Origin: Octopus vulgaris
Lineage: Eukaryota
Direction of reading: 5' to 3'
DNA length: 64,000 bases
NCBI GenBank assembly: GCA_951406725.2
Contig: OX597832.1
Span: forward strand, 28,954,001-29,018,000
The notes under the pieces: model-generated
Told to the model about the DNA's origin: nothing
The model's input: only the letters and a program-made list of their open reading frames with translations
Databases searched by the model: none
Program-made: the position numbers and the translations under genes
In this document: positions 3,544-53,469 of the stretch, piece after piece
How positions within the stretch are numbered: the first letter of the stretch is position 1
Layout: each line of letters opens with the position of its first letter

Positions 3544-4904
3544 AAGGCTAGTTATTATTTGAGTAAGCCACTGATGATCACGGTGAGGTGAAATACCTGA
3601 CGCCTACCCTTTCCACCCCACCACCACCACGCCATTACCTGTTACGTTATTTACACCTGGTGACAATCTACTCACACCTCTCCCTCTCTCTCTTCCTCTC
3701 CCTCTCTCTCTCTTCCTCTCACTCTCTCTCTATTTATCTACCTATCTTTCTATCTATTTGTCCCCTATTTACCTGTTCTCCCTTTGCCCGTCCATAGGTT
3801 TGTACGTCTGTCTATTTTCTTGGATTTTATCTCTCTCTCTTTGTCCTTCTCTCTCTTTCTCCCTCTCTCTCTTTCTCTCTCCCTCCCTCCCTCCCTCCCT
3901 CTCCCCCTCTCACTCTTTCTCCTTCTCCCTCTCCCCCTCTCTCTCTTTCTCTCTTGTCTGACAATCTCTGCATGTCTTTCGATAACTCCCGTTTACCATT
4001 CTTGTGTCTGTGACCGTAAGCACTAAGTTACGGATGACGATGATGATGATGATGACTATGATATCGATGATGATGATGATGGCGATGACGATGGTGATGA
4101 TGATGATGACGATGACGATGGTGATGATGATGATGATGATGACGATGGTGATGATGACGACGACATTGCAATTCCGTCGTCCGATGTTCAAATTATCAAA
4201 AACCAGTGGAACACAAAATTAATTAACACGGTTTCTAATTGTGCAAAAGTCTTCCCTCTTCTTTTCCTAACAAAATAACAGCAACAGCAACGACAACACG
4301 AATAATGACGAAGCTTCTACGTGGTCATCTCAGCAGGTTAGAAATAACAGCTAGTGCCCATCTTATCGTCTGCAAGATGAAGTCACGTATTAAGAAATAC
4401 CGTCGGACATAACAGCGTGTTTTACATAAAGGCGGGATGGTCACGATGGGACATTTTTGATTATATGTCTGTTCAATTATTACTGGCCCGGTCTTAATCA
4501 ACAATCTAGAATGATTCCAATGAAGACGTCTCTACGTGGTCGCTAGAAACAAGAGCCAAACTCCTCCCTAATCATCCCTCGACATCTTAAAAGGTGGTGG
4601 GAGACTGTGACCGATTTAGTCCCAAATATGCAACAAAAGGGATGATTATTGTCGATTATATTTGATCATAATTCTACCACACCTCAGCTGACCGAGGGCT
4701 AAACACAAGCAACAAAAGCAACAATTCTATTACTCAGAATAATATCTAAAAGTAATGTTTAACGCTACATCAAAAAGGTTGTTCGACGTTACTACTGTTC
4801 AACCCCAGACAGAGCCTCAACCATTCAGTTATCGGTGCAGTCAGCATCCGGTATATATTGCAAGCAGGGGAGGGAACTCCCACCATCTTCTAGCAGACGA
4901 CAGG

Positions 4905-4955
4905 ATCGCCAGACCGAACGGTTTCGAGATATTTGAGCCCCTCTTCAGTGGTGAT
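4905..4955 (-). ncRNA. Type I hammerhead ribozyme, intact core
   Basis: Minus strand reads atcacca-CTGAAGA-gggg ctcaaata tctc-GAAA-ccgttcgg-TC-tggcgat. Stem I 6/7 bp, stem II 4 bp (two G·U), short stem III, GUC cleavage triplet. Confidence 0.85.
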
Positions 4956-5100
4956 AGCAGGAATTCGCTCCCGCTCTCAATATACAGAAAACCAAGCGAC
5001 CATCAGTCACTGATCTTGCAAGAAGTAAAGTAGCTAATTAGAAAAAATCTCAATAAGAGACTTAATTAACTTAATTATTTTTCAGGTCTTTTGTTCGAAG

Positions 5101-5823
5101 ATGTCGTGGCTGTGTGGTAAGAAGCTTGCTTCCCAACCACATGGCTCTGTGTTCGATCCCACTATGTAACCTGTTGGGTAATTGTCCTTTACTACCGATA
5201 GAATAAGTACTAGGCTTACAACGAATAAGTCCTGGGGTCGATTTCTTGACTAAAGGCGATGCCCCAGCATGGCCGCAGTCAAATGGCTGAAACAAGTGAA
5301 AGAAATAAAAGAAAGATACGGCGGGCTTCTTTCAGTTTCCGTCTACCAAATCCACACGCAAGACTTTGGTCGGTCCGAGCCTATCGTAGAGGACACTTGC
5401 CTAAGGTTGGGACTGAACCCGGAACCATGTGGTTGGGAAGCAAGCTTCTTACCTCACACCCTCGCTTGCCTGAAACCAACAAGCCCTATACATATGCATG
5501 TTTGCATGTATGTGTGTGCATATGCACATGCGCGCGTATATATATAGACACACACACACACACACATTTCCCAACCACATGGTTCCGGGTTCAGTCCCAA
5601 CCTTAGGCAAGTGTCCTCTACGATAGGCTCGGGCCGACCAAAGTCTTGCGTGTGGATTTGGTAGACGGAAACTGAAAGAAGCCCGCCGTATCTTTCTTTT
5701 ATTCCTTTCACTTGTTTCAATCATTTGACTGCGGCCATGCTGGAGCATCGCCTTTTGTCAAGAAATCGACCCCAGGACTTATTCTTTGTGTAAGCCTAGT
5801 ACTTATTCTATCGGTAGTAAAGG

Positions 5824-5828
<5 letters not shown>
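5101..5828. mobile_element. Cluster of SINE family B fragments forming an inverted duplication (arms 5181-5439 and 5568-5828)
   Basis: tRNA-like head tggctgtgtggtaagaagcttgct...gttcgatccc; body gtagacggaaactgaaagaagcc; tail gcatggccgcagtcaaatg. The arms are reverse complements of each other. Confidence 0.9.
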
Positions 5829-9270: not shown

Positions 9271-10236
9271 CTTTTCTACACTTGGCACAAGGCCCGAAAT
9301 TTTGGCGGAGGGGGCCAGTCGATTAGATCGATCACAGTACGCAACTGCTACTTAATTTATCGATCCCCGAAAGGATGAAAGGCAAAGTCGACCTCGGCAG
9401 AATTTGAACTCAGAACGTAACGACAGACGAAATACCTATTTCTTTACTACCCACAAGGGGCTAAACATAGAGAGGACAAACAAGGACAGACAAACGGATT
9501 AAGTCGATTATATCGATCCCAGTGCGTAACTGGTACTTAATTTATCGACCCCCGAAAGGATGAAAGGCAAAGTCGATCTCGGCGGAATTTGAACTCAGAA
9601 CGTAAAGACACACGAAATACCTATTTCTTTACTACCCACAAGGGGCTAAACACAGAGAGGACAAACAAGGACAGACAAACGGATTAAGTCGATTATATCG
9701 ATCCCAGTGCGTAACTGGTACTTAATGTATCGACCTCCGAAAGGATGAAAGGCAAAGTCGATCTCGGCGGAATTTGAACTCAGAACGTGGCGGCAGACGA
9801 AATACCTATTTCTTTACTACCCACAAGGGGCTAAACACAGAGAGGACAAACAAGGAAAGACAAACGGATTAAGTCGATTATATCGATCCCAGTGCGTAAC
9901 TGGTACTTAATTTATCGACCCCCGAAAGGATGAAAGGCTAAGTCGACCTCGGCGGAATTTGAACTCAGAACGTAAAGACACACGAAATACCTATTTCTTT
10001 ACTGCCCACAAGGAGCTAAACACAGAGAGGACAAACAAGGACAGACAAACGGATTAAGTCGATTATATCGATCCCAGTGCGTAACTGGTACTTAATTTAT
10101 CGACCCCGAAAGGATGAAAGGCTAAGTCGACCTCGGCGGAATTTGAACTCAGAACGTAAAGACACACGAAATACCTATTTCTTTACTGCCCACAAGGAGC
10201 TAAACACAGAGAGGACAAACAAGGACAGACAAACGG
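9271..10236 (-). repeat. Head-to-tail tandem array of 5'-truncated SINE family A units (185-bp period)
   Basis: Units start at 9437, 9622, 9807, 9992 and 10176 with an identical junction gaaatacc|tatttctttact; homologous to the full-length copy at 10890-11119. Confidence 0.92.
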
Positions 10237-19750: not shown

Positions 19751-19842
19751 CGCCCACTGGGGTACTTGAAACCACGACTCTCAGATCACTAAGCTTAAGT
19801 CTACCATAAAATCTGATGCTCAACCGACTGAGCTATGTGGGC
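19751..19842 (-). tRNA. Intron-containing tRNA-Lys(UUU)-like gene, probably a pseudogene (intron about 19787-19806)
   Basis: GCCCACATAGCTCAGTCGGTTGAGCATCAGATTTTA[20 nt]ATCTGAGAGTCGTGGTTTCAAGTACCCCAGTGGGCG. Acceptor stem 6/7, anticodon loop 1 nt short, T-stem altered, TTTT downstream. Confidence 0.7.
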
Positions 19843-20099: not shown

Positions 20100-20411
20100 A
20101 TGTGTGTGTGTATGTATGTATGTATGTGTGTGTATGTATGTATGCATGTATGCATGTATGCATGTATGTATGTATGTATGTATGTATGTATGTATGCATG
20201 TATGTATGCATGTATGTATGTATGTATGTATCTATGTATGTATGTATGTATGTATGTATGTATGTATGCATTTATGTATGTATGTATGTATGTATGTATG
20301 TATGTATGCATTTATGTATGTATGTATGTGTACTCAAATGTTAGTTTGAGAGCGAAACAGCAAGAAAGTGTTCAATAGTTGTTTCAAAGTGAATAATTTC
20401 TTTAAAGTGAA

Positions 20412-20471
20412 TTTCTTTGATTCGACTTTCACGCAGCGAACTATCCATGCCACTGCGATCTTCAGGAAAAA
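20412..20471 (-). ncRNA. Degenerate hammerhead motif
   Basis: tttttc-CTGAAGA-tcgcagtgg...tcgctgcgt-GAAA-gtcgaa-TC-aaagaa. An 8-bp stem II with a U·U closing pair; single mismatches in stems I and III. Confidence 0.55.
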
Positions 20472-35402: not shown

Positions 35403-35465
35403 GTATATATATATGGGTGTGTATATATATATATATATAATATGTGACAATTATTCGGTAGCCAT

Positions 35466-35526
35466 GATAAAACTCCGAGTTTCGGATGTCGGGGCGGAAA
35501 CCCATGCTGGCATCTCTTCAGTTGTC
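35466..35526 (-). ncRNA. Degenerate or variant hammerhead motif beside (TA)n
   Basis: gacaa-CTGAAGA-gatgcc...gacatc c-GAAA-ctcggag-TT-ttatc. Stem I 4/5 bp, stem III 4 bp near-palindromic, extra C before GAAA. Confidence 0.6.
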
Positions 35527-52880: not shown

Positions 52881-53469
52881 AAGAGTGTGGAGGTGGCGGT
52901 GTGTGTGTGTGTGTGTGTGTGGAGGTGGTGGTGGAGGGGTTGCGGAAAGTGTGTGTTGCGGTGTTATGGCGGCGTGTTGAAGAATACGGGTGTAACGAGG
53001 TGAAGGGTGGATTGAGTAGTTTGGCATACTTTAAGGAATTGTTGACGTATTAGAGTCTGCCAGAATATGTGTGCTTGCGTGTGTGTGTGTGTGTGTGGTG
53101 GAATGCGTGTGTGTGCGTGTGTTTGTGCGCGGGATTGCTGCCATGCCATGCAAGAACTCGAACGTTCTTTGGAACTCTTTAACAATGAGTTAATCAAGAG
53201 ATAAAATCTAGAATCTAAGACAACAGTTTCGCGACTTTGGTCATTCCTTGTCTTCAGAGAGATTCTGCTCGTGTCAGCTGTTCTCGTTATTAACCAGGAC
53301 CGCTGTCAACACCACCACCACCAACACCACAACAACAACCACAACAACCATTCAACACTATGCATTACCTCCACCACAACCTCCACCACCACCACCACTA
53401 ATATCACCTCCGCCACGTAATAGTAAGCATGCCTCTCTTACTGTCTCTATCACAGTCTCTCTGTCGCTA

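Follow-up and report, generated by a model that had tools for sequence, protein, structure and literature searches.

Does the hammerhead motif on the minus strand of this stretch of the Octopus vulgaris genome (64,000 nucleotides, all of which were analyzed and which we call the window) belong to a working RNA that makes its own circles, as an earlier note on this DNA supposed, or is it what remains of one? The reading we favor, with a probability of roughly 80%, is that the window carries a damaged, single-ribozyme copy of an old 351-base non-coding hammerhead family, that the copy was probably pasted in by a Penelope-type reverse transcriptase (RT), and that it is likely inactive. The parts of the copy on which the argument turns are these:

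4750–5060, minus strand: the retrozyme copy, 311 nt, single and 5′-truncated, starting at unit position 31 and ending in the next lap, at position 8
5009–5014, minus strand: ATCAGT box, position −59 relative to the predicted start; a candidate snRNA-type promoter element
4953–4985, minus strand: the ribozyme-bearing long arm, 5′ strand, upstream of where transcription is predicted to begin
4955, minus strand: predicted transcription start (unit A134)
4905–4955, minus strand: type I hammerhead motif, core 4948-4942 plus 4925-4922, predicted cut 4912/4911
4952–4953, minus strand: site of an 18-nt deletion with TC microhomology; most sister copies still have the outer strand of stem I and the UGU bulge that it removed
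4941, minus strand: extra base between A9 and stem II; stem III has 3 bp and a GUUC loop
4940-4937/4929-4926, minus strand: stem II, with two changes; loop 2 is 4936-4930
4851–4887, minus strand: 3′ strand of the long arm, pairing with 4985-4953
4750–4757, minus strand: 3′ end of the copy at the family’s preferred end “a” (unit ~8), 164 nt past the cut site and followed by AT-rich DNA

The motif itself stands as first described: on the minus strand, CUGAAGA (4948-4942), GAAA (4925-4922), and GUC (4914-4912) precede a predicted cut between 4912 and 4911. In the 64 kb, a strict three-stem descriptor is matched at this site alone and nowhere on the plus strand; 60 block-shuffled windows give no match at all, and the invariant core (C3 U4 G5 A6, G8 A9, G12 A13 A14 A15.1, U16.1 H17) is complete. 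The ribozyme as a whole, however, had been called intact, and it is not: set against 76 sister segments, the window copy is missing 18 nt at 4953/4952, and its stems I and II are damaged, with an A·C mismatch at I.4, a G·U pair at II.2, and C·U at II.4. The helices can form in part, the partners of I.5-I.6 being deleted or borrowed and I.4 and II.4 being broken. Moreover, the copy has one ribozyme only, and hence no circle can be released from it. Taking up the hammerhead fold is computed to cost the window copy 12-14 kcal/mol, compared with 4.9 for the majority sequence of the family, and the cost rises to 16-18 kcal/mol for a transcript beginning at the predicted start, 4955. This copy is, in all likelihood, a damaged and decayed family member that is inactive now.

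A similar division applies to the rod-like structure that the ribozyme was proposed to cap. The 14 uninterrupted pairs from 4953/4887, including four G·U wobbles, are exactly as claimed, and the claimed advantage of the ribozyme strand is borne out by folding: the minus strand reaches −71.3 kcal/mol (z −3.77, with 1 of 200 shuffles as good), the plus strand −53.6 kcal/mol (z −1.39, 19 of 200). What does not hold is the coexistence of this rod with three closed hammerhead stems: stem I as drawn in the earlier note and the rod compete for 4955-4953, and ensemble prediction for 5015-4823 gives the hammerhead helices a probability of at most 0.02. Nor does long-range pairing continue out to 4823/5015, where each flank makes local hairpins instead. 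The monomer of about 190 nt falls away as well, because the repeating unit is 351 nt, in whose branched fold the 190-nt rod makes up a single arm. If transcription begins at 4955, the transcript would be without the rod’s 5′ strand, and the rod could form only in a second lap or in a circle.

The earlier note is best supported in its broadest claim: the genome does hold many copies of a retrozyme-like family, whose hammerhead, here on the minus strand, is of the canonical type I. In the 2.8-Gb genome the window copy finds 753 candidates, the best 40 of which, once scored, gave 47 matches at 70-89% identity; other copies used as query list 1568 and 1414 candidates. Six such searches yielded 144 fetched loci, and 85 independent ones after removal of repeats of one place and of flank-sharing duplicates, a sample in which young or arrayed copies could be missed since each search scored its best 40 candidates. 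Many copies re-enter their own beginning, head to tail and in phase, as partial tandems with a period of 335-351 nt (351 nt in the majority frame); 42 of 150 pieces exceed one unit, the longest being 694 nt. The unit is non-coding and within the 170-400 nt typical of non-LTR retrozymes: across the majority sequences it measures 351-361 nt, with one type I hammerhead each, a longest ATG-initiated open reading frame (ORF) of 44-76 codons, and 46% GC. The window copy belongs to subfamily A and is 82% identical to the computed majority frame of the 351-nt unit. Two full ribozymes occur in a single locus of the 85 (L038, both damaged), and a source array with several intact ribozymes was not found among them. 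A suggestion that L038 is a chimera of two subfamilies is unsupported, its first lap being ambiguous.

The family is old and dispersed. Copies diverge from their subfamily majority by ~10% outside CpG and by 18-35% at CpG, and no young copy was found among the best-scored candidates of the genome searches. The exact 28-nt core occurs at 4 places in the genome, and a 33-nt degenerate pattern allowing one mismatch gives 59 matches, from which a rough neutral-decay model puts the family at an estimated ~800 copies. In contigs of four runs carrying four organism labels, 514-871 pieces match in each, mostly less than 90% alike; in metagenome contigs the exact core has 0 matches. “Viroid-like” is thus the wrong word for what is a genome-integrated, retroposed repeat in the form of decayed DNA copies, with no hammerhead on the plus strand of the window; a viroid-like replicon is extrachromosomal RNA and mostly has ribozymes of both polarities. 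The Rfam hammerhead model matches neither the window nor 10 better-kept loci (at E up to 1), and since it misses those as well, that test fails for the whole family. Six near-identical copies on one contig, 97-99% alike including flanks (L041, L045, and L049-L052, contig C28), are a recent segmental duplication carrying one old insertion. At one locus, two blocks of the unit (L002:1534-1560 and 1700-1760) have about ten times the contig depth of the ribozyme region, which suggests commoner relatives that have the promoter box and a downstream block in common with it; one pattern search for such relatives gave 0 matches.

Whether a ribozyme so decayed here was ever functional has to be judged from the family. 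A tree of 77 segments falls into four groups, A (42), B (12, with the near-identical L014 and L016 being one counted twice), C (12), and D (11), and stem pairs covary among them. Pair I.2 changes from C-G to G-C in subfamily B, copy by copy (8/12); I.6 from U-A to C-G in C (11/12, whose members were selected with a pattern in which stem I’s 3′ strand is fixed) and in D (8/11); the second outer stem I pair, Ib.2, from G-C to A-U in C (10/12); II.2 from G-C to A-U in C and D; and II.3 from G-C to C-G in C. On CpG-restored majorities, 25 variable pairs divide into 8 compensatory, 13 one-sided, and 4 broken, but CpG restoration over-corrected subfamily A, and for that reason only swaps confirmed copy by copy are used. 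Cells changed on both sides number 81 versus 35 ± 5 in shuffles (56 of 78 ribozyme segments), a count in which inherited changes recur many times and which comes down to about five subfamily events. The covariation score is 0.268, compared with at most 0.098 for slid structures, which do about a third as well; two of five covariation measures, those counting pairs or types, did not exceed shuffles. The family’s helices (I of 6 bp, II of 4 bp, and a short III with a near-palindromic loop, the dimensions that PMC4209133 gives for canonical type I hammerheads) are paired in 86% of cells. From 18 decayed linear copies, RNAalifold recovered no more than stem II and a stem I that was shifted, and its covariation term, +0.78, was uninformative. 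Taken as comparative evidence, the paired changes show that the ribozyme fold was kept as the subfamilies diverged.

The details of the core are consistent with this. The majority core is canonical in subfamilies A, B, and D, and position 4 is C in 10 of 12 members of subfamily C (U4C), a change reported to lower activity in vitro and yet to support a viroid in vivo (PMC3088659). The extra base after A9 is present in all four subfamilies and is described for other hammerheads (PMC4209133). A UGU or UAU bulge in loop 1 and an ACAAAUA-type loop 2 are kept across subfamilies, the bulge being deleted in the window copy. These two loops may resemble the tertiary contact of the schistosome hammerhead. 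Folded as circles, the four majority sequences adopt a common branched shape in which the ribozyme forms the tip of a long arm (z −5.4 to −10.6, ~70% paired, and ~30 kcal/mol better than the opposite strand), and in these modeled folds the rod of the earlier note is that arm. Judged by its conservation, the ribozyme would be real in the source elements, and self-cleavage is predicted for the family.

How the source elements might have been transcribed is suggested by the ATCAGT box. This hexamer lies at −57 to −61 in 11 of the 12 U2 snRNA genes of the genome, and the unit has a single occurrence, 59 nt downstream of which lies an A whose context, T-ATC, resembles that of the U2 start; by eye, none is seen in U6 upstream regions. 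The putative start is also marked by another element, whose 3′ end falls exactly at this A in 3 of 85 loci (L023, L099, and L103); in L023 the insert is flanked by a 17-nt duplication. In the twelfth U2 gene, the same element’s end lies at the first base (DNA match E 7e-13), and the ORF there and the one in the L023 insert are 79% identical. The insert ORF has a weak zf-RVT match, below cut-off, and on that account we regard the element as LINE-like. Copies of the element were located at L023:345-1484, L099, L103, and L198. From these coincidences we infer a U2-snRNA-like promoter that would drive the unit from a start just ahead of the ribozyme.

The ends of the copies carry the information about insertion. 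Among 153 pieces, 48 have their 3′ end near unit position 8 (“a”) and 56 near position 66 (“b”); the two windows make up ~15% of the unit and hold 104 of the 153 3′ ends compared with 29 of the 153 5′ ends, which scatter. The preferred ends are ~58 nt apart, ~164 and ~222 nt past the cut site, and no 3′ end falls within 10 nt of that site. Both peaks persist when the query is rotated by half a unit (13/25) and in a pattern-selected subfamily (23/37). Inverted junctions are head-to-head in 35 cases and tail-to-tail in 0, with variable junctions, and by end class they comprise 10 ab, 11 a plus other, 12 b plus other, 2 other plus other, and neither aa nor bb, where a hand calculation gives ~6.6 for aa and bb together under independent choice. 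Flanks are 76% AT versus 64% in the background, and a microsatellite lies within 40 nt in 35 of 100 compared with 10.5%. Candidate target-site duplications of at least 6 nt accompany 3 of 50 single insertions and are unconvincing. Penelope-like elements (PLEs) are described as leaving partial tandems, an inverted 5′-truncated partner, and a tail at one end only (10.1101/2021.04.23.441226), the tail corresponding to the interval that separates two internal points, downstream of the hammerhead, at which reverse transcription starts (PMC11167929). The copy ends therefore suggest pasting by Penelope-type retrotransposons. In the one PLE tested in the latter source, the ribozyme cut is dispensable for insertion (PMC11167929).

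Elements with RT and GIY-YIG domains are abundant and young in the octopus genome, and none of those compared is a recognizable partner. The unit has no significant DNA in common with 36 GIY-YIG loci (of 148 listed matches; best E 0.63), and no autonomous partner was found among them; the unit has no RT/GIY-YIG ORF, and no upstream flank enters a PLE ORF. A young family encoding a 781-aa RT plus GIY-YIG protein was considered as the partner and set aside, having no DNA in common with the unit. This family (L145-L150, L159, and L160) is very young, with many near-identical copies, a C-terminal GIY-YIG domain, a reading frame of 250-480 codons upstream, and repeats of ~93 bp following the ORF; the strict descriptor finds no hammerhead in it.

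In the mechanism we propose, a source of at least two units would be transcribed from the internal U2-snRNA-type promoter, with the start just ahead of the ribozyme; the transcript would cut itself at successive hammerheads into 351-nt monomers, and these would be ligated into circles, the circular template being our inference. AT-rich DNA would then be nicked by a Penelope-like enzyme, which would begin copying at two internal points of the RNA, often one for each strand. Like the window copy, most products would fall short of the roughly two laps needed for a new circle and would have decayed neutrally since. Variants common to two laps (71 versus 32 expected) have no power to separate a circular from a linear tandem template, because subfamily identity alone can explain the agreement.

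It is the linear template that makes for the most serious alternative. On that account the unit would be the pseudo-LTR (pLTR) of an autonomous Penelope-like element, now extinct, whose truncated insertions, made from linear tandem transcripts with no free circle at any stage, would be the copies we see. All of the insertion marks are, after all, PLE marks, the retrozymes of Xenopus are described as homologous to pLTRs (10.64898/2026.07.22.740005), and no circle is seen in RNA reads. However, copies that run past one unit enter the unit’s own 3′ end and not an ORF, and 62 upstream flanks have only common repeats and one LINE end in common. The ribozyme, moreover, is canonical, with a loop-1 bulge, rather than of the minimal form described for PLEs (PMC4209133), and the fold of the entire unit is that of a closed molecule paired with itself. 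We consider this account unlikely, with the proviso that it and the retrozyme reading are close, in that a retrozyme may be a pLTR gone free.

Two further accounts are each less probable still. The one with which we began, an intact working ribozyme at this very locus and a rod-like monomer of ~190 nt making its own circular RNA, draws on the presence of all 11 invariant core bases, the fold advantage of the minus strand, and a promoter-like box that has been retained. Against it, the full core persists in 14 of 42 subfamily A segments, as ordinary decay allows, which makes the window’s intact core unremarkable; core positions have changed at 6.9% versus 10.9% elsewhere, where base make-up leads one to expect ~9.6% and the sample is biased towards good matches; and the deletion, the damaged stems, the negligible helix probability, and the single ribozyme all count against activity here. 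Just as hard to sustain is the idea that the family spread as DNA, as a small DNA transposon or a satellite-like repeat, with the hammerhead a passenger. Inverted arrangements do occur and RNA evidence is lacking, but every inversion is head-to-head, their varying junctions are not those of terminal inverted repeats, the copies are dispersed over many contigs rather than arrayed, and the ribozyme pairs covary; the combination of fixed 3′ and ragged 5′ ends, a mark of reverse transcription, largely refutes it.

Returning to the damaged retrozyme copy, the RNA data are compatible with a fossil. From two raw RNA runs labeled as a related species, of which 6% each was sampled, 98 of 12.9 million and 84 of 12.0 million records match; the reads come from both strands, and more than 80% run into unlike sequence, which fits passive read-through of decayed copies. 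A circle joint or a pile-up at the cut site was not found in the two runs and two contig sets, libraries of a kind that may miss circles, and no RNA dataset is listed as holding the query.

Among known systems, the nearest are the non-LTR retrozymes of metazoans (PMC7229834), above all the 350-390-bp repeats of Mytilus. The likeness extends, for the features treated in that source, from the canonical type I hammerhead and the unit size to a GC content below 50%, the lack of a long ORF, a self-paired circular fold with the ribozyme arm free, and the presence of PLEs in the genome. Unlike those retrozymes, the octopus family is old and dispersed in partial tandems of 1-2 units, with no long arrays found and a circular RNA that is so far conjectural. 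The passages of PMC7229834 covered here name no cephalopods, describe no PLE insertion-end marks such as the octopus family has, and present Penelope mobilization of animal retrozymes as a proposal. With Poseidon of Anolis (PMC11167929) and the endonuclease-bearing PLEs (10.1101/2021.04.23.441226), as far as those accounts go, the family has in common the partial tandems, the inverted 5′-truncated partner, the tail at one end, two internal start points downstream of the hammerhead, and AT-rich targets; it differs in having no RT-endonuclease ORF, a tail of ~58 nt versus 30-40, and a ribozyme that is canonical, not minimal. The same partnership is argued for vertebrate retrozymes as PLE derivatives (10.64898/2026.07.22.740005), where the sections concerned describe families largely of dispersed monomers unable to transpose and give co-occurrence and pLTR homology as evidence; for the octopus unit, unlike those, no homologous pLTR was found. 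The words “octopus”, “mollus”, “tail”, and “promoter” occur 0 times in that preprint. Newt satellite 2 (cited in PMC2220036) is another hammerhead repeat with an internal snRNA-type promoter, established there by experiment, whereas the octopus promoter is deduced from a 6-nt box, its spacing, and the common LINE target. No cephalopod retrozyme was found in the literature, though supplementary tables may list one. The family likely falls within the class of non-LTR retrozymes, with multi-ribozyme arrays at only 1 of 85 loci and circular RNA presumed.

The family is independent and statistically clear genomic evidence for what the papers considered here put forward as a proposal, the pasting of retrozymes by Penelope-like enzymes. 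By naming two RNA positions as copying starts, it opens the Penelope-retrozyme link to tests in vitro, and among its copies are natural variants of the ribozyme, namely the extra base after A9, U4C, and the five paired swaps. This value is reduced by the fact that the class is known from other animals and that the 2026 preprint argues the PLE partnership on other grounds. A wider possibility, to which we give even odds, is that the family forms an older fossil layer in a system of three tiers: a circular hammerhead RNA with a U2-snRNA-type promoter; a Penelope enzyme priming both strands of one cut from two fixed RNA sites; and a LINE inserting at the first transcribed base, on this family as on U2 genes. 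The arms of head-to-head copies would then never share an end because the Penelope enzyme primes from two fixed RNA sites, and the subfamilies, including the U4C core that still spread, would record, through natural mutation, what a retrozyme circle needs.

The window holds other repeats and motifs. Just upstream of the retrozyme copy are two copies of an abundant SINE-like repeat (5105-5464 and 5568-5828), inverted towards each other and 96.6% alike over 261 bp. Five tandem units of 185 bp, at 95% identity, occupy 9317-10236 and seem to resemble a common mollusc SINE. A loose search returned CUGANGA...GAAA strings at 35459-35521, 53205-53257, and 20405-20465, all on the minus strand. The strict three-stem descriptor accepts none of them; a minimal PLE-type motif is a possibility for 35466-35521. 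Finally, a tRNA-like Rfam match at 19751-19842 on the minus strand (40.8 bits), whose anticodon loop is interrupted by a 22-nt insert, may be a tRNA with an intron or the head of a SINE.
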